The notes: generated by a model not told the origin, from the letters alone. Positions 6,876 through 57,726 are shown, counted from the first letter of the stretch. The stretch is 64,000 nucleotides of DNA from Patescibacteria group bacterium (GCA_049322675.1 JBMORM010000014.1:15896-79895), one strand, 5' to 3'. Program-made: numbers and translations.

Positions 6876-6896
6876 TTCTGAAAGTTATAAAAAGTT

Positions 6897-6958: not shown

Positions 6959-7022
6959 CGACCTTTTAACTTTTAAACTGAAGGTTATTAATATTTTAAT
7001 TATTAATTCTTAATTTATATAT

Positions 7023-11816: not shown

Positions 11817-12074
11817 TATTTATAATCTTCTTAAGTTCGTTTATTGACCTTTGTTGACTTGACTTATTTATTTATGCTAAATTAAGATAGCAATAAATAG
11901 AGATCAAATTTTTCAATTCTCAACTACTACTCCACATATTTGTCTTTTGCTCAATTTAAAAAGTAATGGCGTAACACTACGTCACTAATTTATTGAATTT
12001 ATTATTTAGTTCCAAGTTTTTAATTCTCAATTATTCAATATTGAAAATTAAAAATTGAAAATTAAATTTTATAA

Positions 12075-12494
12075 ATGCCCACAATCAATCAGCTTATCAA
12101 AAATCGCACTTCTCGCCGTCAGAAATATAAAAAAAGTAAAACTCCGGCACTGGCCAAAGGATTTAACTCTTTGAAAAACCGTTCCGTAGAGTATCAAAGT
12201 CCATTCAAGCGTGGCTTCTGTCTCAAAGTACACACCATGACACCAAAAAAACCAAACTCAGCTTTGCGCAAAGTCGCCCGCGTACGTTTAACCAATGGCA
12301 TGGAAGTTACTGCCTATATTCCCGGAGAAGGCCACAATCTGCAGGAACATTCAGTAGTCATACTTCGTGGCGGACGTGTCAAAGATCTTCCCGGAGTGCG
12401 CTATCATGTTGTCCGCGGCAAACTCGACACAGGTGGAGTCAACGATCGTAAACAAAGCCGCAGCAAATACGGCGCCAAAAAACCAAAGAAATAA
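12075..12494 (+). CDS. rpsL: 30S ribosomal protein S12
   Basis: [10 protein letters not shown]...[19 protein letters not shown], classic S12. Confidence 0.96.
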
Positions 12495-12504
12495 ATAGTT
12501 ACAA

Positions 12505-12578
12505 GTTTTCAAGTTATGAAGTTGAAAGTTAAAAAGAAGAATCTTTATAACTTTACAAACTTTCCAACTTTCAAATAC
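12505..12578. repeat. AT-rich palindromic repeat (GTTGAAAGTT family) downstream of rpsL
   Basis: AGTTATGAAGTTGAAAGTT ... AACTTTACAAACTTTCCAACTTTCAA arranged as an imperfect inverted repeat. Confidence 0.5.
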
Positions 12579-12622
12579 ATCGTTCATTGTTAATTATTAA
12601 TTATTAATTTAAATTATCCCCC

Positions 12623-13096
12623 ATGCCACGACGCAAAAGACCTTTCAAAAAAAACCGCCAAACCGACTCGAAATACAATAGCGTATTAGTCAACCGCATG
12701 ATCCAGATGATTATCTGGAAAGGAAAAAAAAGTGTAGCTCAGCGATTGGTTTATGGCGCGTTATCCGAATTAGAAAAAAAATCAAACAAGCCAGCCATGG
12801 AAGCACTCGAACAAGCGATCAAAAATGTTTCTCCAGTTTTGGAATTGAAAGCGCGCCGTATTGGTGGTTCCAATTATCAAGTCCCCGTCGAAGTCAAATC
12901 AGAAAGAGCCGTTACTCTCTCGCTACGCTGGTTAATTGCTGCCGCTCGCGAAAAATCCGGCAAATCTTTTGATATTTTGTTGGCCAACGAATTGTTGGAC
13001 GCTTTAAATACTACTGGTTCAGCAATCAAAAAACGCGAAGACACTCATCGTATGGCCGAAGCCAACAAGGCCTTTGCCTATTTAGCCAGATACTAG
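12623..13096 (+). CDS. rpsG: 30S ribosomal protein S7
   Basis: MPRRKRPFKKNRQTDSKYNSVLVNRMIQ... S7 family. Confidence 0.95.
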   Translation: MPRRKRPFKKNRQTDSKYNSVLVNRMIQMIIWKGKKSVAQRLVYGALSELEKKSNKPAMEALEQAIKNVSPVLELKARRIGGSNYQVPVEVKSERAVTLSLRWLIAAAREKSGKSFDILLANELLDALNTTGSAIKKREDTHRMAEANKAFAYLARY

Positions 13097-13263
13097 TCCA
13101 TTTGCAAAACTCAAATTCAAAACAAAGATTGTAATTTTTTTCCTTTCGTTTTTTTGAGTTTTGTCCGCCAAGATAATATTTCTCCGGCGGATAATTTTTT
13201 TCTTACGCTAGCCGACAAACAACAAAAAATTTAATTATTCATTGTTAATTATTAATTCAAAAA

Positions 13264-15345
13264 ATGAGAGATTATATTTTAGAGAAAGTGCGCAACATCG
13301 GAACTATCGCCCATATTGATGCCGGTAAAACCACTGTTACCGAGGGTATCTTGTATATCACCGGTCGCATTCATAAAATCGGCGAAGTACACCAGGGTGA
13401 AACACAAATGGATTGGATGGAACAAGAAAAAGAACGTGGCATCACTATTACTTCTGCCGCCACTACCTGCTTTTGGAAAGATCATCGCATCAATATTATT
13501 GATACGCCTGGCCACGTTGATTTTACTGCCGAAGTCGAACGATCCCTTCGCGTGCTTGACGGAGCGGTTGTTATTTTTGATGGCAAAATGGGAGTCGAAC
13601 CTCAATCCGAAACGGTTTGGCGCCAAGCTGATAAATATCATGTTCCGCGTATTTGTTTTGTCAATAAAATAAATCAAACCGGTGGCGATTTCTATGCTTC
13701 CCTAAATTCTATCCGCGAACGTCTTAGCGCCAATGCATATCCAATCGCTCTACCGATTGGTTTTGAGAAAGAGATCAATGGCGTCGTGGATTTGGTTGAG
13801 TTAAAATCGTACACCTACAAAGATTACACAGATAAAGAGTTGACGATTGGAGAAGTTCCGGCTGATATGGCTGACAAAGTTAAACAATACCGCCAAGAAT
13901 TGATGGAAAAAGTTGTCGAAGCTGACGACGCCCTGATGGCCAAATATCTTGAAACCGGCGAATTGACTACCGAAGAATTCAAATCGGCTATTCGCAAAAG
14001 CGTTATCAGCGGAAATTTCTTCGCCATCATGGGCGGTGACGGTCGTGGCGTTATTGTCAATAAATTACTCGATGCCATCGTGGACTATTTACCGAGCCCG
14101 CTTGATCTTCCTCCTGTTGAAGGCCAATTACTTGATTCTGACGAAAAAATTTCTATCTCTCCCAATGATACCGATCCTTTTGCTGCTCTCGCTTTCAAAA
14201 TTGCCACTGATCCTTTTGTGGGTCGTCTTTGTTTTATTCGTGTTTATACCGGTGTTCTGCAGGCCGGCAGTTATATTCTAAATTCTTCCACGGGTAAAAA
14301 AGAAAGAGTCGGTCGTATCGTTCGCCTACACGCCAACAAAAGAGAAGATATAGATTCCGTCTATTCCGGTGAGATTGCCGCCATCGTAGGCATCAAAGAT
14401 ACTACAACCGGCGATACCGTCTGTGACGAAAAGAGACCTCTTACTCTCGAAAAAATTACCTTCCCCGAACCAGTCATCCGTGTCGCTATCGAACCAAAAA
14501 CCAAAGCCGACCAAGACAAACTAGGTATTGCTTTAGTTAAACTAGCCGAAGAAGATCCAACCTTCCGCATCAATACCGATGAAGAAACCGGTCAAACTAT
14601 TATCGCCGGTATGGGAGAGCTTCATTTGGAAATTATCGTTGATCGTTTGCGCCGGGAATTCAAAGTAGAAGCCAATGTTGGCGCACCCCAAGTCGCCTTC
14701 CGTGAAAGTATCAAAAAATCAGTTGAACAAGAAGGTAAATTTATCCGTCAATCAGGCGGTCGTGGTCAATACGGTCACGTTTATCTTCGACTGGAACCGC
14801 TTGAGCCCGGCAAAGGTTTTGAATTTGAAAATGCTATTGTCGGCGGAGTTGTTCCCAAAGAATATATATCAGCCGTTGAAAAAGGAGTCGTTGAAGCTTG
14901 CAATCGTGGCGTTTTGGCCGGATATCCTGTTGTTGACGTCAAAGTTACCATTTTTGATGGTTCCTACCACGAAGTTGACTCTTCAGAAATGGCTTTCAAA
15001 GTCGCCGGTTCCATGGCCCTACAAGATGGTGTCCGAAAAGCTGATCCTGTCATTCTCGAACCAATTATGTCTGTTGAAGTTATTACCCCCGAAGATTTCA
15101 TGGGCGATGTAATGGGTGATCTCAACTCCAAACGTGGGCAAATCACCAGTATGACTGACCGTTCGCAAGCCAAAGTTGTTGCCGCCAAAGTACCTCTTTC
15201 CGAAATGTTTGGATATGCCACTACTTTACGTTCCATGACTCAAGGTCGTGCTTTCTTTACTATGGAACCTTCACATTATGCCGAAGTCCCACGCAATATC
15301 GCCGACGAAATAATCAGCAAACGTTCTCCCGCCCCGCAGAAATAA
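13264..15345 (+). CDS. fusA: elongation factor G
   Basis: [17 protein letters not shown], full EF-G domain series; 693 aa. Confidence 0.96.
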
Positions 15346-15351
15346 TTTGAG

Positions 15352-15465
15352 TTTACAAAGTTGAAAGTTATTAAGTCAGATGCTTATATAGTTTCAAATT
15401 TTTATACATTCACGTTTCGTCTCCAACTTCACAACTTGATAACTTTACAACTTTCAACTAATATC
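15352..15465. repeat. AT-rich palindromic repeat pair (AGTTGAAAGTT) downstream of fusA
   Basis: GTTTACAAAGTTGAAAGTTATTAAG ... CTTGATAACTTTACAACTTTCAAC form an inverted repeat with ~50 nt between the arms. Confidence 0.5.
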
Positions 15466-15499
15466 ACTATTTCAAGAAAAAAATAAGCCAAAAATATTT

Positions 15500-15527
15500 T
15501 TGCTCGACATCAATTTGTCTGTAATAT
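15500..15527 (+). promoter_or_regulatory. candidate sigma70-like promoter for tuf
   Basis: TTGCTC (15500-15505), 16-nt spacer, TAATAT (15522-15527); followed ~150 nt later by a strong SD AAGAAAGGAG in front of the tuf ATG. Confidence 0.3.
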
Positions 15528-15693
15528 AAAAAGTTCTTGGTTTTGTTTTGCTGACTATGTTATTATTGTTGTAGTTGTCTCAACTGCTGTTAAAATTTTA
15601 TTTATATATTCTTAAATTATTATCATCTAACTTACATCTTCACTTTTTTAAAAAAATTTTTTAAAAAAAGAAAGTAAGAAAGGAGTATTTCAC

Positions 15694-16896
15694 ATGGCAG
15701 ACACAAAATTTGATCGTTCCAAGCCTCATCTCAACATTGGTACAATTGGTCACGTCGATCACGGTAAAACCACATTGACCGCCGCTATCACTTTAGTTTT
15801 AGACAAACACCAAGCTGAAGGTTACGGTTCTCGTCCCGAAAAATATGACCAAATCGACAACGCCCCCGAAGAAAAAGAACGTGGTATCACTATTGCCACG
15901 CATCATTCCGAATATTGGACTCCAAAAAGACACTATGCCCACGTTGATTGTCCTGGTCATGCTGACTACATTAAAAACATGATTACCGGCGCCGCTCAAA
16001 TGGACGGAGCTATCTTGGTTGTTTCCGCCGCCGACGGTCCGATGCCTCAAACTCGCGAACATATTTTGTTAGCTAGCCAAGTCAATGTTCCGCATATCGT
16101 TGTTTTCTTAAACAAAGTTGACATGGTGGACGATCCAGAATTGATCGACTTGGTTGAAGTTGAAATTCGTGAATTATTAACCAAATACGGATTCCCAGGC
16201 GATACTGTTCCGATTATTCGCGGTTCTGCTTTGAAGGCCATGGAAAATTCCGGCGATCCAGAAATTTCCAAACCAATTTTTGATCTCATCAACACTATTG
16301 ACGAATTTATTCCGGAACCACAACGTCAAGTTGATAAACCATTCCTGATGCCTATCGAAGATATTTTTACCATCGAGGGTCGCGGTACTGTTGTTACTGG
16401 TCGTATTGATCGAGGTATTGTCAAGATAAACGAAGAAATCGAAATAATTGGTATTTCAGATACTCAAAAAACTGTCGTTACTGGTATCGAAATGTTCAAC
16501 AAATCTCTTGACGAAGGTCGTGCTGGTGACAACGCAGGTATCTTGCTTAGAGGCATCAAAAAAGAAGACGTTGCTCGCGGACAAGTATTGGCCAAACCTG
16601 GCAGTATTTTACCGCATAGTGAATTCGAAGCTGAGACTTATATCCTAACCAAAGAAGAAGGCGGACGACATACTCCATTCTTCAAAGGGTATAAACCGCA
16701 ATTCTATATTCGAACCACTGACGTTACTGGCGAAGTATTCCTACCGGAAGGTTCCGAAATGATTATGCCTGGTGATACTGTCAATATCAAAGTCAAATTG
16801 ATTGCCCCAATCGCCCTCGAAGAAGGATCCAAATTTGCTATCCGTGAAGGTGGCAAAACCGTCGGTGCCGGAGTTGTTACCAAAATTATCGCTTAA
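15694..16896 (+). CDS. tuf: elongation factor Tu
   Basis: [22 protein letters not shown]; 400 aa; strong SD. Confidence 0.97.
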
Positions 16897-17052
16897 TCTC
16901 TCTTGTAAGTTTGATTGCTTAAAGGGGAGGAATGTAATCTTTTACCTTCTTCCCCTCTTGTTGCCTCTATGCAAATATTTAAAATCTAAAATTATAACTC
17001 ACATCATAGTTGTAATTTTATATTTTACATTTTTGTCTTAACAAATAAAGCC

Positions 17053-17382
17053 ATGACGACGAACGCCAATACTACTGATCAACAACGAATCCGTATCAAA
17101 ATCAAAGCCTACGATCATCGCGTTATTGATAATTCTGTCAAACAGATTATCAAAACCGCCAGCCGTACCGGCGCCAAAATCAACGGTCCTATTCCTCTGC
17201 CGGTTGAAAAATCCAATTATACTGTCTTGCGTTCCACCTTTATTGACAAAAACTCCCGGGAACAATTTGAAATGAGAATTCATAAACGACTTATTGATAT
17301 TTTAAATCCCACTCCCAAAACCATCGACGCTCTCATGAATCTTGGTTTACCAGCCGGTGTTGATGTCGAAATAAAAATGTAA
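17053..17382 (+). CDS. rpsJ: 30S ribosomal protein S10
   Basis: [40 protein letters not shown]. Confidence 0.95.
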
Positions 17383-17411
17383 TTTTCAACTTAATATCCA
17401 ATATCTACTCT

Positions 17412-18008
17412 ATGAAAATACTCCTCGGTAAAAAAATTGGCATGACTACTCTGATAGCTGATTCCGGCAAAATTGAACCGGCCACTATCATCGAAGCCGG
17501 ACCATGTATCGTTACTCAAATCAAAAATCTCGCTAAAAAATCTTTTCAAATCGGTTATGGTGCCACCAAAAAAAACACCAAAGCTATTTCTGGTCACCTC
17601 AAAGGAAAGACACTAAAGTATTTGCGGGAATTTCCCCTAGACGAGGAAAATTCGGAAATATATCAAGCTGACGCCACCATTGATCTTTCAATCTTCGATA
17701 CCAAAAAAACAGTTGATATTACTGGAACCTCCAAAGGGAAGGGATTTGCTGGAACCGTCAAAAGATACAACTTTAGCATTGGACCAAAAAGTCATGGTTC
17801 CAAACATCACCGTCGTGTTGGCTCTACCGGTTGTCGCTTTCCTCAACATACTATCAAAGGTCGTCGCATGCCGGGAAGAATGGGTAACGAACAAGTCACC
17901 ACAAAACATTTATCAATTCTGCGAATCGAAACCGACAAGAATCTTCTTATTGTTCGCGGCGCTGTTCCAGGAACCAAAAATAGACTTGTAGTTATAAAAC
18001 AACATTAA
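17412..18008 (+). CDS. rplC: 50S ribosomal protein L3
   Basis: MKILLGKKIGMTTL..., GKGFAGTVKRYNF. Confidence 0.95.
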   Translation: MKILLGKKIGMTTLIADSGKIEPATIIEAGPCIVTQIKNLAKKSFQIGYGATKKNTKAISGHLKGKTLKYLREFPLDEENSEIYQADATIDLSIFDTKKTVDITGTSKGKGFAGTVKRYNFSIGPKSHGSKHHRRVGSTGCRFPQHTIKGRRMPGRMGNEQVTTKHLSILRIETDKNLLIVRGAVPGTKNRLVVIKQH

Positions 18009-18047
18009 TTTTTTCACCGATATTAACCGCTTTTAATAACCAATCAC

Positions 18048-18728
18048 ATGGCAGCTCGTTCAACTAAAATCAAGAATACTGACAAATTAACTGTACCGAT
18101 TTTTGATAGCAAAGGACAAAGTCAAAACAATTTGGATATCAACGAATATTTTTCCCAAAAAGAACTGACGTCCGGATTCAATCCAAGTTTTGTTCATCAA
18201 ACTGTTCTGGCCTATCACAACAATCTCAGACAAGCTACCGCCAAAACCAAAACTCGCGCCGAAGTGTCCGGTGGTGGCAAAAAACCATGGCGTCAAAAAG
18301 GTACCGGTCGGGCTCGTCAAGGTTCTATTCGTTCTCCACAATGGCGTAAAGGTGGAGTTGTATTCGGACCAACCGGCTCTCAAAATTTTTCCGTCAAACT
18401 CAATTCTCGGGTCAAAGCCAAAGCCATGCGTTTTGCTCTACTCGATTTATTAAACCAAGAAAAATTGGTAATCATTGATAATCTACCCGCTATCAAATCA
18501 ACTAAAGATTTGAAGCATTTTCTCAAACAATACAGTATTAGTCAGAAAAATCTCCTCGGCCTAGAACTAAAAGACTTGTTATACTTTCAATTTGCTGCTA
18601 ACTTAGATATTGTGTATCCAAAACTAATCAACCAAATAAATCCGTTGGATTTGTTTCGTTGTCAGACATTCATATGTTCGCAAGAATCATTCACTAATCT
18701 ATTAAAACGAGTAAAAGCCAGTAAATAA
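18048..18728 (+). CDS. rplD: 50S ribosomal protein L4
   Basis: GGGKKPWRQKGTGRARQGSIRSPQWRKGGVVFGP. Confidence 0.93.
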   Translation: MAARSTKIKNTDKLTVPIFDSKGQSQNNLDINEYFSQKELTSGFNPSFVHQTVLAYHNNLRQATAKTKTRAEVSGGGKKPWRQKGTGRARQGSIRSPQWRKGGVVFGPTGSQNFSVKLNSRVKAKAMRFALLDLLNQEKLVIIDNLPAIKSTKDLKHFLKQYSISQKNLLGLELKDLLYFQFAANLDIVYPKLINQINPLDLFRCQTFICSQESFTNLLKRVKASK

Positions 18729-18736
18729 TTTCTTCT

Positions 18737-19015
18737 ATGCTCAATATTATCATCAAACCAGTCATCACTGAAAAAAGTCTTTTTTATGCCGCTTCCCAAA
18801 GATACTCTTTTTTTATTCATCCCAAAGCGAATAAGTATCAGGTCAAATCGGCTATCAAACAGGCCTTCAAAGTTGATGTTGAAACCGTACGCATTGTCAA
18901 TGTCAAGTCAAAAAAACGCCGTCGCGGTCGTTTTGTCGGTCAAACGGCGGCCGCCAAGAAAGCCATTGTTACTCTTGCCAAAGACCAAAAAATTGAATTT
19001 TTTGATAAACTTTAA
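18737..19015 (+). CDS. rplW: 50S ribosomal protein L23
   Basis: IIKPVITEKS...KYQVKSAIKQAFKVDVETVRIVN. Confidence 0.93.
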   Translation: MLNIIIKPVITEKSLFYAASQRYSFFIHPKANKYQVKSAIKQAFKVDVETVRIVNVKSKKRRRGRFVGQTAAAKKAIVTLAKDQKIEFFDKL

Positions 19016-19038
19016 ACCTCATTTTCTAATTAATTCTT

Positions 19039-19872
19039 ATGTCTGTTAAATCATTTAGACCAAATACGCCCGGCCGTCGTCAAATGACAATGCTGGTCAA
19101 CAATACAATTACTGTTTCCAAGCCAACCAAAAAATTGTTGGTTCCTCTCAAAAAAAACGCAGGACGCAACAATCGCGGTATTATTACTTGTCGCCATCGT
19201 GGCGGTGGATCTCGCAGGCAATACCGTCTAATTGATTTCAAGGGAAACAAACTCAATATTTCCGGCACAATCAAATCAATCGAATACGATCCAAATCGCT
19301 CTGCCAATATCGCTCTCGTCTGTTATCCTGATGGTGACAAAAGATACATGATTGCTCCTGAAGGATTAAAAACTGGAGACAAAGTTATCGTCAGCCCCAA
19401 AGCTGAATTAAAAATTGGCAATCGACTGCAACTAAAAAATATTCCTACCGGTTTCAATATTCACAACATCGAACTCTCTCCTCAGCGCGGTGGACAAATA
19501 GTCCGTTCTGCCGGTTCTTCCGCAATGGTTATCGGCCGAGACGGTTCCAAAATTCAAGTTAAATTACCTTCTTCGTCTATTATCCTTATTCCCGAAGATT
19601 GCATGGCTACGATTGGTCAAGTCTCCAACTTGGATCATTCCAATGTCAAAATTGGCAAGGCTGGACGCACTAGACATTTTGGTCGCCGCCCGAAAGTACG
19701 TGGTAAAGTAATGAATCCAGTTGATCATCCGCATGGTGGAGGTGAAGGGCGCAATTCAATCGGTCTCAAGTATGCCAAGACCCCCTGGGGCGCTCACGCT
19801 TTGGGTGTCAAAACTAGAAAAATGCGCAAATATTCACAAACTCGCATTATCAAAGATCGTCGTAAAAAATAA
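19039..19872 (+). CDS. rplB: 50S ribosomal protein L2
   Basis: GRNNRGIITCRHRGGGSRRQYRLIDF..., HPHGGGEG. Confidence 0.96.
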   Translation: MSVKSFRPNTPGRRQMTMLVNNTITVSKPTKKLLVPLKKNAGRNNRGIITCRHRGGGSRRQYRLIDFKGNKLNISGTIKSIEYDPNRSANIALVCYPDGDKRYMIAPEGLKTGDKVIVSPKAELKIGNRLQLKNIPTGFNIHNIELSPQRGGQIVRSAGSSAMVIGRDGSKIQVKLPSSSIILIPEDCMATIGQVSNLDHSNVKIGKAGRTRHFGRRPKVRGKVMNPVDHPHGGGEGRNSIGLKYAKTPWGAHALGVKTRKMRKYSQTRIIKDRRKK

Positions 19873-19910
19873 CAATTTACCTATATTTTTAGATATTTAA
19901 AATTTAACAC

Positions 19911-20231
19911 ATGTCTCGTTCACTAAAAAAAGGACCATTCTGCGAACCAAAACTTTTAAAAAGGATTAGAGCTCTCAAGCCGGGAGATAAGACAGTATTA
20001 AAAACTTGGTCGCGCGCCAGTGTAATCTATCCCGATTTTGTTGGCTTTACTGTTGCTGTTCACAATGGCAAGGATCATATTCCAGTATATGTTTCGGAAA
20101 ATATGGTCGGTCACAAATTTGGTGAATTTGCTCCTACCAGAAAATTTCGTGGACATGGTGGAAAAATGGCTAAAGAACAAGCCAAATCAGCCGCTCCTGC
20201 ATCAGCTCCGGCCGCTCCCGCCAAAAAATAA
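19911..20231 (+). CDS. rpsS: 30S ribosomal protein S19, with an Ala/Pro/Lys-rich C-terminal tail
   Basis: [36 protein letters not shown]; C-terminal tail [20 protein letters not shown]. Confidence 0.95.
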
Positions 20232-20258
20232 TTAAATTTCTTATTAATAACAATTCCC

Positions 20259-20765
20259 ATGACCGAAGTAATTGCAAAAACCCGTTTCGCTCAATCAGCT
20301 CCTCGCAAACTACGCGCGGTTGCCAAACTGGTAAAAAGCAAACCCGCCTTCCCTTCACTGACTACTCTCCAATTCACTCCCAAAAAAGCAGCCAAAGTAT
20401 TGGCAAAAACTCTGAAAACAGCTATTTACAATGCTGTCAACAACTTCAACTACGACAAAAAAGATTTGATAATCAAAAATATCTTGATCGATCAAGGACC
20501 AACACTTGTCCGTTTTATTGCTATGGCAAGAGGTTCCGGCAATTCTTATAAAAAAAGAACTTCTCATATTACTGTTATCCTGGAAGTAGTCGAACCAGTT
20601 TCTATTACCAAAACACCCGCAAAAAAAGCCGATTCTCCAGCTAAAACTGTTACCAAAAAAACTTCCAGCAAATCAAAAGCTACCAAGAAAGATACTGCAA
20701 AAGCAAAAGGTGCCAAAACAACTGTTTCTGTCCGTTCTCGTCGCACTCCTAAACCAAAAAAATAA
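20259..20765 (+). CDS. rplV: 50S ribosomal protein L22, with a Lys-rich C-terminal extension
   Basis: L22 core followed by a ~55-aa K/T/A-rich tail. Confidence 0.93.
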   Translation: MTEVIAKTRFAQSAPRKLRAVAKLVKSKPAFPSLTTLQFTPKKAAKVLAKTLKTAIYNAVNNFNYDKKDLIIKNILIDQGPTLVRFIAMARGSGNSYKKRTSHITVILEVVEPVSITKTPAKKADSPAKTVTKKTSSKSKATKKDTAKAKGAKTTVSVRSRRTPKPKK

Positions 20766-20803
20766 TTTCTTCTTTATTATTTGTAAATTTTTAACTAAGC
20801 CTC

Positions 20804-21466
20804 ATGGGTCAAAAAGTACATCCTTATATTTTCCGTCTTGGTATGATTAATGATTGGAAATCAAAGTGGTTTTCCAGTAAAAACTACCGACAATTTTTAC
20901 ACCAGGATTTGAAAATCAAAAAATTTATCAACAAAAAATTGGCTCACGCCGGTCTTGCCGATATTATTATTGAACGTTCCGCTGGACAAATTACTATCAA
21001 TATCCACACCGCACGCCCCGGCATCATTATCGGACGAGGGGGCACTGGAGTTGATGAGCTAAAAAAAGAACTTCAAAAGATTCTCTTACCCTCAGACAAA
21101 ATTCAACTAAATATAATCGAAGTCCGTCAACCCGATACCGTCGCTACTTTAGTTGCTCAAAATATCGCCAGTCAGATTGAAAAAAGAATCCCTTACAAAA
21201 GAGCGATCAAACAAGCCATCGAACGCGCTCTGCAAGCAAGAGTCGAAGGTATTAAAGTGATTGTAAAAGGTCGTCTCAATAACGTTGATATTGCCCGCTG
21301 TGAAACTTTTGCCAAAGGAAAAATTCCTCTTCATACCATTCGCGCCAATATTGACTACTGTAGTTTACCCGCCTTTACCGCCACATCAGGAAAAGTTGGA
21401 GTGAAAGTATGGATATACAAAGGTGAACATTTTAGAACAGACAAAATTAATCAACCGCAAGCTTAA
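20804..21466 (+). CDS. rpsC: 30S ribosomal protein S3
   Basis: MGQKVHPYIFRLG..., KH domain. Confidence 0.95.
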   Translation: MGQKVHPYIFRLGMINDWKSKWFSSKNYRQFLHQDLKIKKFINKKLAHAGLADIIIERSAGQITINIHTARPGIIIGRGGTGVDELKKELQKILLPSDKIQLNIIEVRQPDTVATLVAQNIASQIEKRIPYKRAIKQAIERALQARVEGIKVIVKGRLNNVDIARCETFAKGKIPLHTIRANIDYCSLPAFTATSGKVGVKVWIYKGEHFRTDKINQPQA

Positions 21467-21477
21467 TCTAAATTCAT

Positions 21478-21882
21478 ATGTTACTTCCCAAGAAACTCAA
21501 ATATCGAAAACGACAAACAGGTTCCTTCAAAGGAGTCTCTATCGCCGGCTCACAATTAAATTTCGGCAAATTTGGTTTAAAAGCACTGGAGAGATCCTTT
21601 GTTACTTCCCGCCAAATAGAAGCTGCCCGCCGTGCTATGACTCGTTTTATTCAAAGAGGAGGACAAATTTGGATTCGGGTATTTCCCGATCAACCGATTA
21701 CCAAAAAACCCAATGAAGTCCGCATGGGTTCAGGAAAAGGAGCAGTTGATCACTACTCAGTTCGTATCTTGCCAGGACGAATAATGTTCGAAATCGATGG
21801 TCTTCCACCGGAAACCGCCAAACGTGCTCTTGTTTTAGCCTCTCACAAATTACCAATCAAGACAAAAATTGTCATCAAATAA
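21478..21882 (+). CDS. rplP: 50S ribosomal protein L16
   Basis: MLLPKKLKYRKRQTGSFKG... Confidence 0.95.
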   Translation: MLLPKKLKYRKRQTGSFKGVSIAGSQLNFGKFGLKALERSFVTSRQIEAARRAMTRFIQRGGQIWIRVFPDQPITKKPNEVRMGSGKGAVDHYSVRILPGRIMFEIDGLPPETAKRALVLASHKLPIKTKIVIK

Positions 21883-21897
21883 TATTTTCTATATACT

Positions 21898-22107
21898 ATG
21901 AAAGCAGCCCAAATACGTCAAAAGAACACCGAAGAATTACTCAAATTACTTACCGATAGCTATGAGCAATTGCGAGATTTTCGCTTTCAGGCTTCTATTC
22001 GTAAACTTAAAAATGTTAAACAGATCAACGCCGTCAAAAAAGACGTCGCGCGCATTCTTACTATCTTAATCGAGAGAAACAATCAAAATGAGCAACCAAG
22101 TAACTAA
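21898..22107 (+). CDS. rpmC: 50S ribosomal protein L29
   Basis: 69 aa; MKAAQIRQKNTEELLKLL...; overlaps the rpsQ start by 20 nt. Confidence 0.9.
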   Translation: MKAAQIRQKNTEELLKLLTDSYEQLRDFRFQASIRKLKNVKQINAVKKDVARILTILIERNNQNEQPSN

Positions 22108-22369
22108 AACTCAAAAAGGACGAGTCGTTTCCGCCAAAATGGATAAAACCGTTGTCGTCCGTGTCGATCGATATGCCCGTCACCCAAAATATCTCAAACG
22201 CTACTTGATTAGTAAAAAATATTTTGCCCATAATCACAACAACAAAGCCAAACTCGGCGACACAGTAATTATTAAAGAATCTAGACCGTTAAGTCGCTTG
22301 AAACGTTGGACTGTCCAAGAAATAGTTGCCTCCGCTTCCATCGTCGATTCTACCGCCACCAAAGAATAA
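22088..22369 (+). CDS. rpsQ: 30S ribosomal protein S17
   Basis: KGRVVSAKMDKTVVVRVDRYARHPKY. Confidence 0.94.
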   Translation: MSNQVTKTQKGRVVSAKMDKTVVVRVDRYARHPKYLKRYLISKKYFAHNHNNKAKLGDTVIIKESRPLSRLKRWTVQEIVASASIVDSTATKE

Positions 22370-22465
22370 TTTTCTTCATATTTCTAGATATCTCAACGAA
22401 ATATTGTTTGAAAATTACAAATTATAAATTGAAAATTATTCCTTAGATTATTAATTTCTTTTCCC

Positions 22466-31396: not shown

Positions 31397-31499
31397 CCCT
31401 CACGGGACCGAACTGCTGCTGGCAATGACCAATTTTCAAACAAATTCAATTCTAGGATCATTCTTTTTTGTATTTGTTTGGAAATTGAGCCTTTTTTGG
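31397..31499 (-). repeat. dispersed intergenic element, copy 1 (short form), with conserved ends shared with 62839-63142
   Basis: 31397-31426 CCCTCACGGGACCGAACTGCTGCTGGCAAT is the exact reverse complement of 63113-63142; 31478-31499 TTGGAAATTGAGCCTTTTTTGG is the exact reverse complement of 62839-62860; flanked by heptad arrays at 31352-31392 and 31500-31560. Confidence 0.6.
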
Positions 31500-31564
31500 A
31501 AATTGAGAATTGGAAATTGGAAATTATCAATTCATTCTTAATTATTAATTGTTAATTAATTATT

Positions 31565-32146
31565 ATGTCGCATTTATTTTTAATAACCGGCGTTCCCGGT
31601 GTCGGCAAAACTTCCATCGCCAACGCCGTTGCCGCCAATTTCAATTTACCGTTAATCAATTTCGGTGACATTTTGTTCAAAAAAATCAAAGCCGCCAAAA
31701 TAGGTATCAAAGAAGTTGACGAAATCAGAGTCAAGTTACCTTTCAAACAGTACAAAAAATTCCAAGTCGCTACCGCCCGCGAGATTGCCAAAACCAAGGG
31801 CGACAAAATAATCACTTCTCATCTTTCCATTGATACTCCAACTGGATTCAAACCGGGCTTCCCGCAAAATGTTATCGATATTTTTTCTCCCAGTATTATT
31901 TTTTCTATTCAATCCCCGGCCGACGAAATCAGAAAAAGACGCATGTCCGACAAAGACACTCGTCATCGTGGACAAAAACTGGAAAAATGGATCGAATTTC
32001 ACCAATCCTTCAACCGCGCCCTCGCCGCCAACTACGCCTTCTACACCGGCAATTACGTCTATCCAGTCCAAAATCGTCAGGGAGAAATTGCCAACTGCAT
32101 CGAGGAAATCAACGAAGTTATTGGACAGATACTGAAACAAAAATAA
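31565..32146 (+). CDS. adkA: adenylate kinase, archaeal type (AdkA family)
   Basis: LITGVPGVGKTS P-loop; SHLSIDTPTGFKPGFP; RRMSDKDTRHRG; VQNRQGEI; these align to remembered Methanococcus/Methanocaldococcus AdkA blocks (VTGVPGVGTT, THSTxKTPKGYLPGLP, RRxxDETRxRD, QNRNG); no bacterial Adk LID or NMP-binding motifs. Confidence 0.75.
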   Translation: MSHLFLITGVPGVGKTSIANAVAANFNLPLINFGDILFKKIKAAKIGIKEVDEIRVKLPFKQYKKFQVATAREIAKTKGDKIITSHLSIDTPTGFKPGFPQNVIDIFSPSIIFSIQSPADEIRKRRMSDKDTRHRGQKLEKWIEFHQSFNRALAANYAFYTGNYVYPVQNRQGEIANCIEEINEVIGQILKQK

Positions 32147-32175
32147 GACAATTTCCAGTTTCCAATTTCCAGTTT

Positions 32176-32197
32176 CCAAAAAATGTCCAATTTCCAA
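32176..32197 (+). repeat. partial third copy of the left-end motif of the dispersed element (CCAAAAAATGTCCAATTTCCAA)
   Basis: Differs from CCAAAAAAGGCTCAATTTCCAA at three positions; embedded in the heptad arrays between adkA and map. Confidence 0.4.
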
Positions 32198-32308
32198 TTC
32201 TCAATGGATGCGATCCGTTTGGAAATTGTGTCTTGGAAATTCATTGGAAATTATACCGTTGTTTACAAAAATGAATATATTTTTTTGTTCCCAATTTACA
32301 TTATTCCA

Positions 32309-33070
32309 ATGTCATTATTCAACAATCCCACTTTAGACCAAAAATACACCGCCATGAAAACCGGCGGCCAAATTCTCGCCCGAATCATCTATGAACTAAA
32401 AGATCTCGTCGAGCCCGGCATGTCGGCCTCCCACCTTGACCAGATTGCCTATCAAAAAATCATCGCCGCCGACTCCAAGCCGGCCTTTTTGGGTTATCAA
32501 GGTTTTCCCAACAGTTTGATCGTCAGCCTCAACAACGAAGTTGTTCACGCTATTCCCAAATCGCACAAAATTATTAATGTTGGAGATTTGGTTACTCTTG
32601 ATCTTGGTTTGTATTATCAAGGTTTTTGCACCGACATGGCTATCAGTTTTATTTTAGGCAAAAAAAACAATCCCGTTGCTCAAAATCTCCTTCTGGCCGC
32701 CGAAACTGCCTTGGACAACGCCGTAAATCTGATTGAACCCGGAATACAGATTGGCGACATCGGCCATATTGTTGAAAAAACCGCCAAGGAATTCAAAGTT
32801 AAGGTAGTTTTCGATTGTGCCGGTCACGGTGTGGGCAAAAAAATCCACGAAGAACCAACAATTCCCAACTTTGGCCGAACGAATACCGGGCCTCAATTAA
32901 CAGTCGGCCAAACCGTGGCCATCGAACCAATTTTCGCCGTCTCCACCAATTATTTTTCTCACCAACCGGATGGCTGGACTTTGGTTACCGAAGATGGCTC
33001 TTTGGCCGCCCAGGCCGAACATACCATCATCATTACCCCCCAAGGTAACGAAATTCTGACCCTCAGATAA
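32309..33070 (+). CDS. map: methionine aminopeptidase, type I
   Basis: MetAP-I metal ligands in context (D..D, H, E, E): VTLDLGLYYQGFCTDMA, AGHGVGKKIHEEP, AIEPIF, EHTIIIT; the ORF-track start at 32183 would translate the intergenic repeat array, so ATG 32309 (MSLFNN) is preferred. Confidence 0.88.
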   Translation: MSLFNNPTLDQKYTAMKTGGQILARIIYELKDLVEPGMSASHLDQIAYQKIIAADSKPAFLGYQGFPNSLIVSLNNEVVHAIPKSHKIINVGDLVTLDLGLYYQGFCTDMAISFILGKKNNPVAQNLLLAAETALDNAVNLIEPGIQIGDIGHIVEKTAKEFKVKVVFDCAGHGVGKKIHEEPTIPNFGRTNTGPQLTVGQTVAIEPIFAVSTNYFSHQPDGWTLVTEDGSLAAQAEHTIIITPQGNEILTLR

Positions 33071-33188
33071 TAAAATTTTTTCCCATGTCTCACAAAATAT
33101 GTTTAAAAATTAAAAATTAAAAATTAAAAATTTTTCCTGATATTGTGTCTTGCGTCCCTCTAATAAAAGTGATAATATTAATCGTGCT

Positions 33189-33443
33189 ATGAAAAATAAG
33201 AGTGCCAAAAATAAAGACGTTGCCAAGAAATCAAAGGAAGTGATAGAATTAGAAGGTGTAGTAGATGAGGCACTTTCCAATGGCATGTTTCGTGTCAAAT
33301 TGGAAAATGAACATTTTATTATCGCTGTTATTTCCGGACGGATGAGAATGAATTTCATTCGGATTATGCCCGGCGATAAAGTCAAAGTCGAAATGACTCC
33401 CTACGATCTCAGTAAAGGTCGTATTACATTTAGGTACAAATAA
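33189..33443 (+). CDS. infA: translation initiation factor IF-1
   Basis: [66 protein letters not shown], an S1-like IF-1; ATG at 33189 is preferred over the TTG at 33150 inside the (AAAAATT)n array. Confidence 0.88.
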
Positions 33444-33459
33444 AATTATAAATCGTCCC

Positions 33460-33591
33460 ATGAAAGTTCAATCTTCAGTCAAACCTCGTTGCAACAAATG
33501 TACAATCATCGTCCGCCGCTCCAAACCGGGCAAGAAAAAAATTGTCCGCGTCATTTGCACCAATCCTCGTCATAAACAACGACAAGGCTAG
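33460..33591 (+). CDS. rpmJ: 50S ribosomal protein L36
   Basis: Manual translation [43 protein letters not shown] (43 aa); below the ORF-track size cutoff. Confidence 0.85.
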
Positions 33592-33600
33592 CTTTTTAAA

Positions 33601-33689
33601 TTTCCAATTTCCAATAATCAATTTCCAATAAATTTTCCATTGTCCCAACAAAATATCATTTGGAAATTGAAAATTGAAAATTGAAAATT
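33601..33689. repeat. inverted pair of heptad arrays (AATTTCC x3 ... GGAAATT/GAAAATT x4) flanking a 27-nt spacer between rpmJ and rpsM
   Basis: 33601-33634 AAATTTCCAATTTCCAATAATCAATTTCCAATAA; 33662-33689 GGAAATTGAAAATTGAAAATTGAAAATT. Confidence 0.65.
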
Positions 33690-33709
33690 TATATTTAATT
33701 TTTACGAAC

Positions 33710-34093
33710 ATGGCTCGTATTTCCGGCGTTCAAATCCCAACTGAAAAAAGAGTAGAAATTGCTCTTACGTATATTTATGGCATAGGCTTAACCAGCAGCC
33801 AGAAAATTCTCAAAATTGCCAATATCAGTCCTGACACCAGAGTCAAAGATCTAACCAATGAACAATTGGACAAAATTCGTGAAATAATCGACAAAAATCA
33901 CCTGGTCGAAGGCGTTCTTAGACAAAAAATTTCTACCAATATCAAACGACTCAAAGAAATTGGTTCCTACCGAGGCGATCGACACAACCGTCGCTTACCC
34001 CTACGTGGTCAACGTACTCGCACCAATGCCCGTACTCGCCGCGGTCGCAAAATGACTGTCGCCACTTCCAAAAAAGCCCCGACCAAGACCTAG
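33710..34093 (+). CDS. rpsM: 30S ribosomal protein S13
   Basis: [26 protein letters not shown]...; ATG at 33710; the ORF-track TTG at 33674 lies in the repeat array. Confidence 0.95.
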
Positions 34094-34099
34094 TATAAA

Positions 34100-34198
34100 A
34101 TTTCCAATTTCCAGTTTTCAATTTCCAAATCTATAACCAAATTATCCGTATATCCCCTCAAAGTATGTTTGAAAATTGTGAATTGAAAATTGGAAATT
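34100..34198. repeat. inverted pair of heptad arrays flanking a 41-nt spacer between rpsM and rpsK
   Basis: 34100-34128 AATTTCCAATTTCCAGTTTTCAATTTCC; 34170-34198 GAAAATTGTGAATTGAAAATTGGAAATT. Confidence 0.65.
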
Positions 34199-34231
34199 AC
34201 TCATTATTATTTTTTTAATTATTCCTCACCC

Positions 34232-34651
34232 ATGGCCGACATTAAAGAAAAAAAATCAACCAACGAAAAAGTCTCTTCCAAGAAAAAAAAGAAGAGAAAA
34301 ATATCTGTAATCTCAGGAATAGCTCATATCCAATCAACATTCAACAACACCATTATTACTATTACCGACAAAAAAGGTAATGCCATTTCTTGGGGATCAA
34401 CGGGTTTAGCCGGCTTCAAAGGCACCAAGAAAAGCACACCATACGCCGCCTCAGTTGCCGCCAAAAAAGCTGCTGAAAAGGCCAAACAAGTTGGTTTAAA
34501 AGAAGTCGAAGTTCTTGTCCAAGGTGTTGGTTCTGGTCGCGAATCTTCTATTCGCGCTCTGTATGCCGAAGGTATCGACATTCTTTCTATCAAAGATATT
34601 ACTCCAGTTCCTCACAATGGTTGCCGAGCCCGCAAACCCCGCCGCGTCTAA
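34232..34651 (+). CDS. rpsK: 30S ribosomal protein S11
   Basis: [30 protein letters not shown]...; ATG at 34232 (MADIKEKK). Confidence 0.95.
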
Positions 34652-34704
34652 GTATTTTCCCTTTTTTTTGAAAATTATAAATTATAAATTGAAAATTAAT
34701 TATT

Positions 34705-35331
34705 ATGGCCTACAAATACCCCAACTGTCGTCTCTGTCGTCGCGAAGGTGAAAAACTTTTTCTAAAAGGTGCGCGTTGTCAATCACAAAAATGTGCCTTG
34801 GTCAGAAAAAGCTATGCCCCCGGAGATCATGGTGCCGCCTCAAAAAAAGGCAAACCTTCCTCCTACGCCATCCAATTGCGAGAGAAACAGAAGACCAAAA
34901 GAATTTACGGTTTGCGCGAAGGTCAATTTTTCAAATACTATTCTTTGGCATCCAAGAAAAAAGGTGTTACCGGTTTGGTTTTGCTTCAATTGCTTGAGAC
35001 AAGACTAGACAATATAATTTTCCGTCTCGGTTGGGCTCCTTCTCGCCATACGGCACGTCAAGTTGTTTCGCATGATCATATTCAGGTAAATGGACACACC
35101 GTTAATATTCCTTCATATCAAGTGAAAATTGGCGACAAGATTACTGTCAAAGAGTCGTCAAAAACTAAAAAGTATTTTAAAGAAACTCTTGATCTTGGTG
35201 ATTTTAAACCACCGATTTGGTTAAAGGCCAACTCATCAGCTCTTACCGGTGAAATTATTACTTTACCCAGCAAAGACGATATTGATAGCAATATCAACGA
35301 ACAATTAATTATTGAATTTTATTCTCGTTAA
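34705..35331 (+). CDS. rpsD: 30S ribosomal protein S4
   Basis: Zinc-ribbon CRLCRREGEKLFLKGARCQSQKC; S4 domain RLDNIIFRLGWAPSRHTARQVVSH. Confidence 0.95.
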   Translation: MAYKYPNCRLCRREGEKLFLKGARCQSQKCALVRKSYAPGDHGAASKKGKPSSYAIQLREKQKTKRIYGLREGQFFKYYSLASKKKGVTGLVLLQLLETRLDNIIFRLGWAPSRHTARQVVSHDHIQVNGHTVNIPSYQVKIGDKITVKESSKTKKYFKETLDLGDFKPPIWLKANSSALTGEIITLPSKDDIDSNINEQLIIEFYSR

Positions 35332-35349
35332 CGTTTTTGGAGGACTAAA

Positions 35350-36273
35350 TTGGACATTATCGTCTTGCCAGAAATTAAATGCATCAAGGAAACTGACAAT
35401 CAGGCGACCTTTGTCGTCGAACCTCTTTATCCTGGATACGGTGTCACTATTGGCAATTCCTTGCGTCGCACTTTGCTTTCTTCGCTTGAAGGAGCGGCTA
35501 TCACTTCGGTTAAAATCGAAGGCGCCACTCACGAATTCTCAACCCTTCCGCACATAAAAGAAGATTTGGTTGAAATAGTATTAAATCTCAAAAAAGTTCG
35601 TCTAAAAATGCATTCCGACGAGCCAATCAAACTCCAACTGTCAGCCAAAAAATCAGGACCAGTCACTGCCGGTATGTTTTCCAAAAACCCCGATGTCGAA
35701 ATCGTAAATCCGGATTTAATATTGGCTAATCTTGACAACAATAAAGGCAAAATGGATATGGAAATCACCGTCGAAAAAGGTCGTGGCTATTTACCTACCG
35801 AACAACGAGAGAATGAAAAAAATCCGATCGGGACAATTGCCATTGATGCACTTTTTAATCCAGTTACCCAAGTTAACTTCAATGTTGAAAACACACGCGT
35901 GGGCGGTCAAACCAATCTGGACAAACTGACAATTGATATTACAACTGACGGCACTGTCAACGCCAAGGATACTTTGGACTACGCCGCCAATATTCTTGTT
36001 TCTCATTTCTCATTGTTTACTTCCGAAGGCATTGCCAAGTCTGCCCAAAAGATAGCAAAAGTTGACAAAGAAGACGTCGCCGAAGATATCGAGTCGATAA
36101 AAGTTGAAGAGATCAATCTTTCCACCCGAACACTCAATGCTTTGTTAAAAAATGATATCAAAACAATTGGCGACGTATTCAAACATTATGAAGATCTCCC
36201 GAGCCTACCCGGACTGGGAGCAAGAGCAATTACAGAAATAAAAGAAGCCATTGCCAGATTACAAGACAACTAA
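35350..36273 (+). CDS. rpoA: DNA-directed RNA polymerase subunit alpha
   Basis: FVVEPLYPGYGVTIGNSLRRTLLSSLEGAAI; TTG start with GGAGG 8 nt upstream. Confidence 0.94.
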   Translation: MDIIVLPEIKCIKETDNQATFVVEPLYPGYGVTIGNSLRRTLLSSLEGAAITSVKIEGATHEFSTLPHIKEDLVEIVLNLKKVRLKMHSDEPIKLQLSAKKSGPVTAGMFSKNPDVEIVNPDLILANLDNNKGKMDMEITVEKGRGYLPTEQRENEKNPIGTIAIDALFNPVTQVNFNVENTRVGGQTNLDKLTIDITTDGTVNAKDTLDYAANILVSHFSLFTSEGIAKSAQKIAKVDKEDVAEDIESIKVEEINLSTRTLNALLKNDIKTIGDVFKHYEDLPSLPGLGARAITEIKEAIARLQDN

Positions 36274-36306
36274 TTCAATAATATTCAAGTTTTTATCGAT
36301 TCTACC

Positions 36307-36657
36307 ATGCGAAAACTACGTAAAATTAAAAAATTCGGCCGGATCAAAGACAAACGCGAACAAATGATTAAGTCTCTTGCCAATTCCCTTGTCTTTTACG
36401 ACAAAATTGAAACTACCGTCACCAAAGCCAAAGTTCTGAAATCATTTATGGACCGACTTGTCACCAAAGCCAAACAAGGAACACTGCATGATCGCAGACA
36501 AATCATGCGATATTTGGACAATGAAATTGCCGTAAAAAAGTTGATGGAAGTTTATGGTCCCAAATATAAAGATCGCTCCAGTGGCTTTACTCGTCTCACC
36601 AAAACTCGCAATCGAGTAGCCGACAATGCTCCCATGATACTGATAGAATTTATTTAA
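36307..36657 (+). CDS. rplQ: 50S ribosomal protein L17
   Basis: SLANSLVFYDKIETTVTKAKVLKSFMDRLVTKAK. Confidence 0.94.
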   Translation: MRKLRKIKKFGRIKDKREQMIKSLANSLVFYDKIETTVTKAKVLKSFMDRLVTKAKQGTLHDRRQIMRYLDNEIAVKKLMEVYGPKYKDRSSGFTRLTKTRNRVADNAPMILIEFI

Positions 36658-36708
36658 ACTTTTTACAAATCAAAGTACCTGCCACCTATATACCCATAAT
36701 CAAATACA

Positions 36709-37128
36709 ATGAAACTCACAAACTACAAAATCGACCGAAAAGCTCGCACTTGGCATCTTATCGACGCCAAAGACCAAGTACTTGGTCGTTTATCGGTAAA
36801 AGTTGCCCAATTGCTGATGGGTAAACATAAAGCCAATTTTACTCCCATTTTTGATTCTGGCGATAACGTTGTTATTATCAATGCCAAAGACATCAAATTG
36901 ACCGGCGTCAAAGCCGAACAAAAAAAATATCATCATTTCACTGGATACATTGGCAATCTGAAAACAATCACTTTCAAGGAAGTTCAAGCAAAAAAACCGG
37001 AATGGGCCATTTATCACGCTGTTCGCAAAATGCTCCCCAAATCTCTACTGGCCAAAAAAATGCTTAAGAAACTTCGTATTTATCCCGGTGCCGAACATCC
37101 TCATCAAGGAATTCAATTTCAACAATAA
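36709..37128 (+). CDS. rplM: 50S ribosomal protein L13
   Basis: WHLIDAKDQVLGRLSVKVAQLLMGKHK. Confidence 0.94.
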   Translation: MKLTNYKIDRKARTWHLIDAKDQVLGRLSVKVAQLLMGKHKANFTPIFDSGDNVVIINAKDIKLTGVKAEQKKYHHFTGYIGNLKTITFKEVQAKKPEWAIYHAVRKMLPKSLLAKKMLKKLRIYPGAEHPHQGIQFQQ

Positions 37129-37185
37129 AATCAATTAGACAATCTTTTCATACTTTTCTCATTATTAATTGTTAATTATATTTAG

Positions 37186-57720: not shown

Positions 57721-57726
57721 GTTTAA

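Follow-up and report, generated by a model that had tools for sequence, protein, structure and literature searches.

The subject of this analysis is a set of short tandem arrays of A/T-rich 7-nt units that lie between the genes of a ribosomal super-operon in an uncultured Patescibacteria group bacterium (GCA_049322675.1, JBMORM010000014.1:15896-79895); the whole stretch analysed, 64,000 nucleotides long, is referred to below as the window. The super-operon runs on the + strand and comprises rpoB, rpoC, a VanW-like gene, rpsL, rpsG, fusA, tuf and the S10, spc and alpha genes, followed after secY by an IS110 transposase gene, a 579 amino acid (aa) open reading frame (ORF), an archaeal-type adk, map, infA, rpmJ, rpsM to rplQ, rplM and rpsI. 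A gene for L30 is not present in the super-operon. The closest matches to its SecY are in metagenome-assembled genomes of Patescibacteria, one of which (L002) shows 99% aa identity and four others (L003, L004, L005 and L056) 74–78%. Coding nucleotides of the window and of L002 are about 85–96% identical, and the proteins of the flanking genes 90–100%. Rfam covariance models at gathering score gave no match on either strand of the 64 kb, and tRNA scans likewise gave none.

Arrays were called with Tandem Repeats Finder (TRF) and compared with 40 shuffles in which dinucleotides were preserved separately in coding and intergenic segments. The window contains 29 period-7 arrays against a shuffle mean of 3.2 (maximum 8), and 12 period-14 TRF rows against 0.8; three-unit patterns with up to three mismatches were matched 40 times by GRAAATT (0.38 expected) and 23 times by TTAATTR (0.33 expected). 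A period-8 family (AAGTTNNN / NNNAACTT), overlooked in the original prediction, accounts for 13 rows where 2.65 are expected. All but one of the 29 period-7 arrays are intergenic, though intergenic DNA makes up 12.5% of the window, and across seven genomes the same is true of 113 of 119; they adjoin stop codons no less often than start codons. The modal size in the window and its relatives is 30–31 nt, or about 4.3 units, and the octamer arrays peak at 32–36 nt, again about 4.3 units. Arrays had been predicted close to the start codons of many genes of the operon, and they were found before rpsL, rplN, rpsN, rpsE, rplO, secY, adk (31496–31566), rpsM (33660–33689), rpsK (34169–34198), rpsD, rpsI, rpsG and fusA; the one named before rplR consists of only about two units.

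Two short-read contigs from the same sample, L001 (26203–31386) and L202 (33662–34697), are 100% identical to the window over their internal arrays and both end within arrays, which shows that the arrays are real and present in multiple copies in the genome. An assembly artefact was rejected on the strength of this independent assembly. Because such contigs start and stop inside arrays, the repeats evidently fragment de Bruijn graph assemblies of this genome. A/T-richness was likewise rejected as the cause, since Clostridium loci of 33% GC hold 0–3 arrays per ~21-kb locus, mostly 0 or 1. The arrays were divided into two classes: inverted pairs of the form (AATTTCC)n...(GRAAATT)n together with their octamer equivalents, and unpaired arrays beside the ATG.

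At least five inverted pairs lie in the window, among them the four named in the original prediction, and 18 were measured across five of the seven related genomes searched. In the window the arms are 30–34 nt long and 84–97% complementary, the 5' arm beginning -1 to +7 nt past the stop codon and the 3' arm ending near the next start. Between the 579-aa ORF and adk (31358–31525, +), a C-type arm (31358–31391) that begins within the stop codon and a G-type arm (31492–31525), with 100 nt between them, are 97% complementary, the variant unit AATTCTC/GAGAATT included; the whole spacer (31359–31564) has a folding energy (dG) of -71 kcal/mol and a z-score of -8.8. Other pairs also fold strongly, with z from -3.7 to -4.7. 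The pair between rpsM and rpsK (34099–34198, +; arms 84% complementary, dG -24, z -4.7) is present in L002 with fewer units. That between rpmJ and rpsM (33597–33691, +) has arms at 33597–33628 and 33660–33691, 88% complementary, and a flank motif at 33640–33662, and another (2426–2559, unstranded) lies between two minus-strand genes, with arms at 2434–2467 and 2525–2558 that are also 88% complementary. The fifth pair (32149–32262, +; C-type 32149–32205, G-type 32220–32262; dG -34, z -4.6) falls in the adk–map spacer because map really starts at 32309, as established by comparison with L002 and by profile alignment. At 32183–32308 the longest map ORF begins within this array pair, which happens to be stop-free, and arrays can thus inflate ORF calls.

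Octamer pairs occur in the rpoB–rpoC spacer (6881–6975, +; (AAAGTTAT)n ... (N)AACTTT(N); whole-spacer dG -28, z -3.5), in the rpsL–rpsG spacer upstream of an unpaired block (12497–12575, +; (AAGTTNNN)n / (NNNAACTT)n) and after fusA (15350–15459, +; TRF row 15424–15459, CAACTTTA x4.6). A cluster of period-8 arrays (GTTATAAA, AACGTATA, ACGTTCCC, TTATAACT) is found outside the ribosomal operon at 57713–58365 (unstranded). The second arms of octamer pairs (12549–12575, 15424–15459 and 58344–58365) contain UAACUUUA-like strings, which we take, as a bare lead, to resemble the 'epsilon' enhancer of phage T7 gene 10 (UUAACUUUA). In the four-unit C-type arms at 31358–31388, 33599–33629 and 34099–34128, and at 2685–2714 of locus L150, units 1, 2 and 4 are AATTTCC and the third is divergent (AATTCTC, AATAATC, AGTTTTC; TTCTCAA in L150).

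The inverted pairs look like dispersed repeats at the DNA level and not like selected RNA structures, because they share flanks and cores, show no G-U bias and lie in spacers that are replaced wholesale between the window and L002. A 23-nt non-repeat flank is common to the G-type arrays at 22388, 33640 and 49794 (0 expected); the motif (TCCCAACAAAATAT) had no match in other genomes among 201 loci. At 49794–49857 (+) the flank motif (ATATCCCAACAAAATATCGTTTG) is followed by a 6.3-unit G-type array, antisense to the genes on either side and 2 nt away from the stop codon of a 449-aa gene. Most cores between arms are unique, and one of 58 nt is found at two loci: 31390–31447 recurs, reverse-complemented and 93% identical, at 63092–63149. 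The second copy belongs to a compound element (62813–63149, unstranded) of C-type arrays (62813–62867), a 228-nt insert and the core. The insert (62868–63095) is nested between array arms in a spacer with dG -105 kcal/mol and z -7 to -10; it had no Rfam match and no full-length second copy in the window or the fetched loci, and its only relatives are two short matches in L005 (31–37 nt), both to its last ~37 nt. On the sense strand, the non-Watson-Crick positions in the arms of the 18 pairs comprise 13 G-U, 13 A-C and 53 other mismatches, and selection for RNA pairing was rejected on the equality of the first two. In the rpmJ–rpsM spacer folding is stronger for the antisense than for the sense strand (-36.6 vs -22.1 kcal/mol), C-A in the sense being G-U in the antisense.

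The unpaired class consists of TTAATTR blocks (B-type; consensus TTCATTGTTAATTATTAATT) and GAAAATT/ATAAATT arrays, with TTCTTAC in a relative. The TTAATTR family is found only in the rpoB–rpsI region and on its sense strand only. Its blocks, all on the + strand, end 7 nt before rpoC (6985–7015), 5 nt before rpsG (12583–12617, TTCATTGTTAATTATTAATTATTAATT), 6 nt before fusA (13231–13257), 4 nt before rpsE (25539–25572), 15 nt before secY (26783–26816) and 6 nt before rpsI (37158–37179); that of rplE (23222–23255, TTATTAATTGTTAA x2.4, perfect at period 14) reaches the ATG at 23255, and that of adk (31530–31566), which follows directly on the G-arm, runs into the ATG. The blocks at rpsE and secY are kept in L002, as is the adk block, although the hairpin arms beside it there are of another family. 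G-type arrays, again on the + strand, end 8 nt before the ATG of rpsL (12040–12066, ATTGAAA/ATTAAAA, 3.9 units), 27 nt before rplN (22408–22438, GAAAATT/ACAAATT/ATAAATT, preceded by the flank motif at 22388–22410), 8 nt before rpsN (23833–23863, a perfect 14-nt alternation, ATTGAAAATTGGAA x2.2), 3 nt before rplO (26202–26233, with the units TTGAAAA, TTATAAA, TTATAAA and TTGAAAA, kept in L002) and 6 nt before rpsD (34668–34698, unit order as at rplO). A perfect (TTAAAAA)4.3 array lies upstream of infA (33103–33132, +), and outside the operon a (CCTAAAA)5.1 array (44597–44632, +) ends 2 nt before the ATG of a 667-aa gene.

Most of these arrays end between -2 and +8 nt relative to the ATG. Start-proximal ends lie 0–8 nt from it in the window, L002, L004, L005 and L056 despite unrelated units, and all 12 single arrays are nearer the start than the stop. 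Sense orientation outnumbers antisense 24:1 among the unpaired families close to starts, which are TTAATTR (window and L002) and, in L005, CTTGATA and TTCTTAC. Long spacers carry arrays more often in the super-operon (16 of 25) than elsewhere (6 of 23; p=0.011). Leaders often close with a run of C right before the start (cccc ATG). A leaderless-promoter geometry for the TTAATTR blocks, judged by eye, fits rpoC and rpsG and does not fit fusA, rplE or rpsE, and was dropped.

Many leaders are occupied by the arrays from -3 to -35, and none of the array leaders contains a GGAG, GAGG, AGGA or AAGG core. That the arrays stand where a Shine-Dalgarno (SD) sequence would be expected, as had been proposed, is to this extent correct; the array-free genes of the operon, however, are mostly SD-less too, so the lack of an SD sequence is not specific to the array genes. 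An SD-like core was found in only 12 of the 71 genes of the window and, within the operon, in 0 of 18 array-bearing leaders against 4 of 24 array-free ones (p=0.12). As predicted, tuf, rpoA and the IS110 gene carry such a core. Their duplex energies with the canonical anti-SD are -6 to -9 kcal/mol, and those of the array leaders, calculated with the same anti-SD, which may not be that of the host's own 16S, range from +2.9 to -3.3 kcal/mol and are near zero except for rpsN. Initiation without an SD sequence is the norm in this genome, whether arrays are present or not. SD-like cores are commoner on minus-strand genes.

Arrays are present in related genomes as well, and are swapped or replaced between genomes that are about 90% identical. 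At the 579-aa ORF–adk and adk–map spacers L002 has a AAACCCTN / NAGAGTTT pair instead of the AATTTCC pair; at infA, rpsM and rpsD the G-type arrays of the window give way to TTAATTR blocks, in the case of rpsD to an octamer pair plus a TTAATTG block. The slot beside the ATG is kept while its content has changed, and the modules change far more quickly than the genes that flank them. Among 80 named genomes, dense heptamer arrays were found only in some Patescibacteria (L002–L007, L020 and L056), with Saccharimonadia, Elusimicrobiota and Clostridium (33% GC) lacking them. The units are genome-specific: AATTACG, AATTTTA and AATTACC in L004, CTTGATA and TTCTTAC in L005, GAATTAT in L007 and ATTAGAA in L020. 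In array-free relatives from the Candidate Phyla Radiation (CPR; among L008–L031) the ribosomal-protein genes overlap by 1–4 nt at nearly every junction, and the array-bearing lineages L004, L005, L007 and L020 have lost almost all gene overlaps; the median length of ribosomal spacers ranges from -1 to +1 nt across eight array-free CPR loci and from 29 to 91 nt across four array-bearing ones.

A metagenome scan with (TTGRAAA)3 matched at least 120 contigs, with a GC content of 25% to 66% among the matches listed. Since several CPR loci have 55–61% GC, a high GC content alone does not exclude a contig from the CPR. Among the matches listed, 78 of 128 arrays measure exactly 30 nt (four units plus TT); a peak at 29–32 nt is also seen for by-catch arrays whose units are unrelated. 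Arrays of 30 nt end sharply at the 3' edge and are degenerate but in phase on the 5' side.

The explanation towards which we lean, though tentatively, is that the arrays spread as repeat DNA into expanded intercistronic spacers, where they were tolerated or co-opted, the pairs folding away and the unpaired blocks providing an SD-free, A/U-rich leader. Modules of ~30 nt, with about four 7- or 8-nt units, would owe their origin to replication slippage or duplication and their spread to copy-and-paste or recombination; they have filled intercistronic spacers that the array-free CPR relatives, with their overlapping ribosomal genes, lack. Inverted pairs may fold out as long hairpins that rejoin the upstream stop and the next start, and we propose that insertion of an array pair is tolerated because the hairpin brings the two codons back together. 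The unpaired sense-specific arrays (TTAATTR, GAAAATT/ATAAATT) would form a G-poor, ATG-free, A/U-rich leader with its end 0–8 nt before the ATG, and an SD-independent leader role for them is plausible on the sequence evidence. The 30S subunits would need to load on such a leader in the absence of SD pairing, for which bS1 with its OB-fold domains offers the most plausible route; 3–4 S1 domains are present in most CPR bS1 proteins (PMC9297842). Any enhancer effect would be generic, a matter of composition, low structure and periodicity and not bound to one sequence, which would account for the exchange of families at a given slot.

Several points weigh against this explanation. The array-free CPR relatives manage without arrays, and in this operon arrays are unnecessary for SD-less initiation because the array-free genes lack an SD sequence as well. 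The predicted accessibility of positions -24 to -1 in operon context does not differ in favour of array genes (median 0.085 vs 0.115, p=0.36). The sense bias is inseparable from replication direction, nearly all genes concerned being on one strand, and among the metagenomic matches listed, which come from mixed contigs, TTGRAAA arrays face either way with respect to their neighbours. Since they lie inside a co-oriented operon the arrays are probably co-transcribed, to judge from the operon layout alone. Neither a target-site duplication nor an empty site nor an associated transposase was found; as regards the empty site, the corresponding positions in L002 are occupied by other elements. Finally, the account leaves the four-unit mode unexplained. 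That arrays make leaders more accessible is unsupported in operon context, though two isolated single-array spacers, at rplO (z +1.63) and rpsD (z +2.10), fold less than nearly all shuffles. The sole transposase in the window is the IS110-family gene, identified by a Pfam match, and IS110 elements have no terminal inverted repeats. This gene (28580–29542, in the region 28107–29618) has an SD-like AAGGAA and lies between secY and the 579-aa ORF; L002 is without the insertion.

Dedicated SD-independent enhancers, that is, selected cis-elements that recruit 30S subunits, for example via bS1, and tune expression gene by gene, would account for arrays that end 0–8 nt from the ATG, for the 24:1 sense orientation and for the position of all 12 single arrays, and they agree with the enrichment in the operon, with array leaders devoid of an SD-like core and with a slot that is kept while its unit changes; MacGregor proposed a like role for TAACTGA repeats. 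To this extent the S1-type enhancer idea of the original prediction is supported in part. We nevertheless regard selected enhancers as unlikely, given that arrays stand at different genes in each relative, with sequence replaced within ~10% nucleotide divergence, that array-free genes are equally SD-less and no gain in accessibility is seen, that units range from purine-rich GAAAATT to pyrimidine-rich TTCTTAC, and that array-free relatives use overlapping genes.

The strict period could instead reflect a protein with a 7-nt reading period, for which the arrays would be binding sites in DNA or RNA, serving operon-wide regulation or nucleoid organisation. Models are at hand: on the DNA side, 7-bp heptads in direct and inverted arrays are the target of omega, the ribbon-helix-helix repressor of pSM19035, and on the RNA side cold-shock domains bind ~7 nt and HutP recognises UAG triplets that recur with a 7-nt period. 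A reader of this kind suits the four-unit mode that holds whatever the unit sequence (~4.3 units for octamers too), the variable third unit of the C-type arms and the genome-specific units, as expected if sites and factor co-evolve. It sits badly with several unrelated unit families per genome that are interchangeable at one site and with the occurrence of the TTGAAAA unit in contigs of 25% to 66% GC among the matches listed, and no candidate gene was identified, the 579-aa ORF being missing from L004 and L005; we consider it improbable.

A related possibility, also improbable in our judgement, takes four-unit heptad modules to be cross-phylum micro-elements whose size would be set by a conserved machine and which would serve as the default intercistronic leader, replacing overlap coupling in SD-poor Patescibacteria. 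The machine might be a reader that is tetrameric or has four domains, for instance a 3–4-domain bS1, or a templated or polar repeat-adding process; it would not be a G-quadruplex, which cannot explain the four-unit mode here because A/T-rich arrays keep that mode. The cross-phylum claim rests on the literature and not on the (TTGRAAA)n contigs.

If the pairs were RNA punctuation, they would be selected hairpins acting as RNase III or RNase E sites, mRNA stabilisers or ribosome-opened coupling devices. Strong folds (z -3.7 to -8.8), arms that begin at the stop and end near the next start, and the expansion of spacers where sister lineages couple genes by overlap all speak for such hairpins. The mismatch spectrum, with G-U equal to A-C at 13 each, 53 others and no compensatory pattern, speaks against them, as do the better fold of the antisense strand at rpmJ–rpsM, the loss or exchange of pairs among close relatives and the many arrays that are unpaired, and punctuation is accordingly rated as very doubtful. 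Least probable of all are the internal promoters or UP-like elements offered in the original prediction, with TTGAAA, TTGTTA and TTGATA as tandem -35 boxes, A/T-rich -10-like sequences downstream and some leaderless or short-leader mRNAs: consensus sites on seven arrays score 9–10 of 12 matches (10/12 for TTGAAA-17-TATATT at 33667 and TTGAAA-16-TATTAT at 34183), many start-proximal units in relatives contain TTGA or TTGAYA, and promoter-like sites are modestly above shuffles (68 vs 49.7; 26 vs 17.2), but any A/T-rich DNA yields such weak matches, -10-like hexamers stand at inconsistent distances from the ATG, TTCTTAC, AATTCGT and TTTAAAA bear no likeness to a -35 box, an apparently better candidate lies upstream of rpsL at 11854, and the 49794 copy is directed into a convergent gene's 3' end.

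Some features of the neighbouring genes were also recorded. The product of the 579-aa ORF (29619–31358), which lies inside the ribosomal operon, is cysteine-rich, with many CxxC and NCxNC motifs, and gave no Pfam or NCBIfam domain match. It evolves fast, with 43% identity to its counterpart in L002 and 41% to that in a metagenome locus (L134), and has no counterpart in L004 or L005. The idea that it is a lineage-specific array reader was rejected, since it has no domain matches and is missing from these two array-bearing genomes. The adenylate kinase of the operon (31565–32146) is of the archaeal AdkA type and not the bacterial Adk type (NF003122, 153 bits; cutoff 155). Over the whole window C exceeds G on the + strand nearly throughout, and the cumulative GC skew falls steadily.

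In comparison with known systems, the arrays fail the tests for SD sequences, intrinsic terminators, repetitive extragenic palindromic (REP) elements, G-quadruplexes and Rfam families. None of 36 terminator-like sites falls on an array or pair, the stems of the arrays being A/T-rich, and there is no G3 tract in GAAAATT, GGAAATT, TTAATTR or AATTTCC. With REP/BIME/REPIN, ERIC and Correia or MITE-like elements, as generally described, the arrays share a multi-copy, extragenic distribution, inverted pairs in operons with hairpins that are probably transcribed, genome-specific families, presence that varies among strains, and nested copies such as that at 62813–63149. They differ in that the arms are direct tandem heptamer repeats and neither palindromes nor unique sequence, and no conserved GTAG-type tetranucleotide head, GTAG/RAYT signature or cognate transposase was found in the window. 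The A/U-rich S1-dependent enhancers of SD-less mRNAs are similarly G-poor, weakly structured and directly 5' of the start; these enhancers, however, are not known to be periodic or to come in four-unit modules, and the arrays here are known from sequence alone.

Knowledge of heptamer repeats in intergenic DNA goes back to 1990 for cyanobacteria and is of later date for Xanthomonas and Beggiatoaceae, and the present arrays add an example from the CPR; no report of such arrays in Patescibacteria was found in the literature. The cyanobacterial short tandemly repeated repetitive (STRR) heptanucleotides were reportedly described by Mazel et al. in 1990. Like those of Nostoc and Calothrix, as generally described, the arrays are lineage-specific heptamers with several families per genome, located in intergenic and intra-operon spacers, which in cyanobacteria are variable but structured between close strains; phylum and unit sequences are different, and the likeness is one of description, no cyanobacterial genome having been analysed.

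The simple sequence repeats (SSRs) of Xanthomonas (GGGAATC) and Nostoc PCC 7120 (GGGGAYT) are also heptamers, and four units are clearly preferred (Rehm et al. 2015; PMC4692102). They are 89–93% intergenic, mostly between co-oriented ORFs, with 70–75 convergent pairs per genome, and vary widely in length and sequence among close relatives; no function was identified, and the four-unit preference was linked to G-quadruplex formation (PMC4692102). Unit length, four-unit mode, intergenic bias, inverted pairs and fast turnover are common to both systems. The arrays described here, in contrast, are A/T-rich and without G-tracts, yet retain the four-unit mode, which, given the explanation advanced for Xanthomonas, is their most interesting aspect; the Rehm repeats, moreover, lie nearer the upstream ORF, whereas here a sense-specific subclass abuts start codons. 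Placement of that kind is known from marine Beggiatoaceae, in which TAACTGA direct repeats stand a few nt before starts, over the expected ribosome-binding site (MacGregor 2015; PMC4679880). Canonical ribosome-binding sites seldom occur there, translation genes are over-represented, with sites inside ribosomal-protein operons, and S1, Csp and CsrA were proposed as readers (PMC4679880). Both systems thus have heptamers abutting start codons, without a ribosome-binding site, in ribosomal-protein operons. The TAACTGA system has a single unit across phyla, in sets of 2–6 copies, and next to no inverted pairs (one indirect repeat), unlike the window with its several units per genome, common inverted pairs and octamer family. 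In the survey of Mrazek, as cited in these two papers, heptamers are the commonest long SSR unit and polymerase slippage was suggested.

The sister-lineage contrast between overlapping genes without arrays and array-filled spacers with hardly any SD sequences frames the question of how internal cistrons are initiated, and two behaviours can be separated: neutral decay in the palindromic pairs, and a sense-specific position against start codons in the other blocks. In practical terms, the arrays break short-read assemblies and can lengthen ORF calls, as for map. The arrays show every testable defining feature of the intergenic heptanucleotide SSR/STRR class (tandem 7-nt units, a non-coding bias, about four units, inverted pairs and lineage-specific fast change), an identity that the original prediction had missed, and we conclude with high confidence that they are a new, A/T-rich CPR member of this class, dispersed as modules of about four units.

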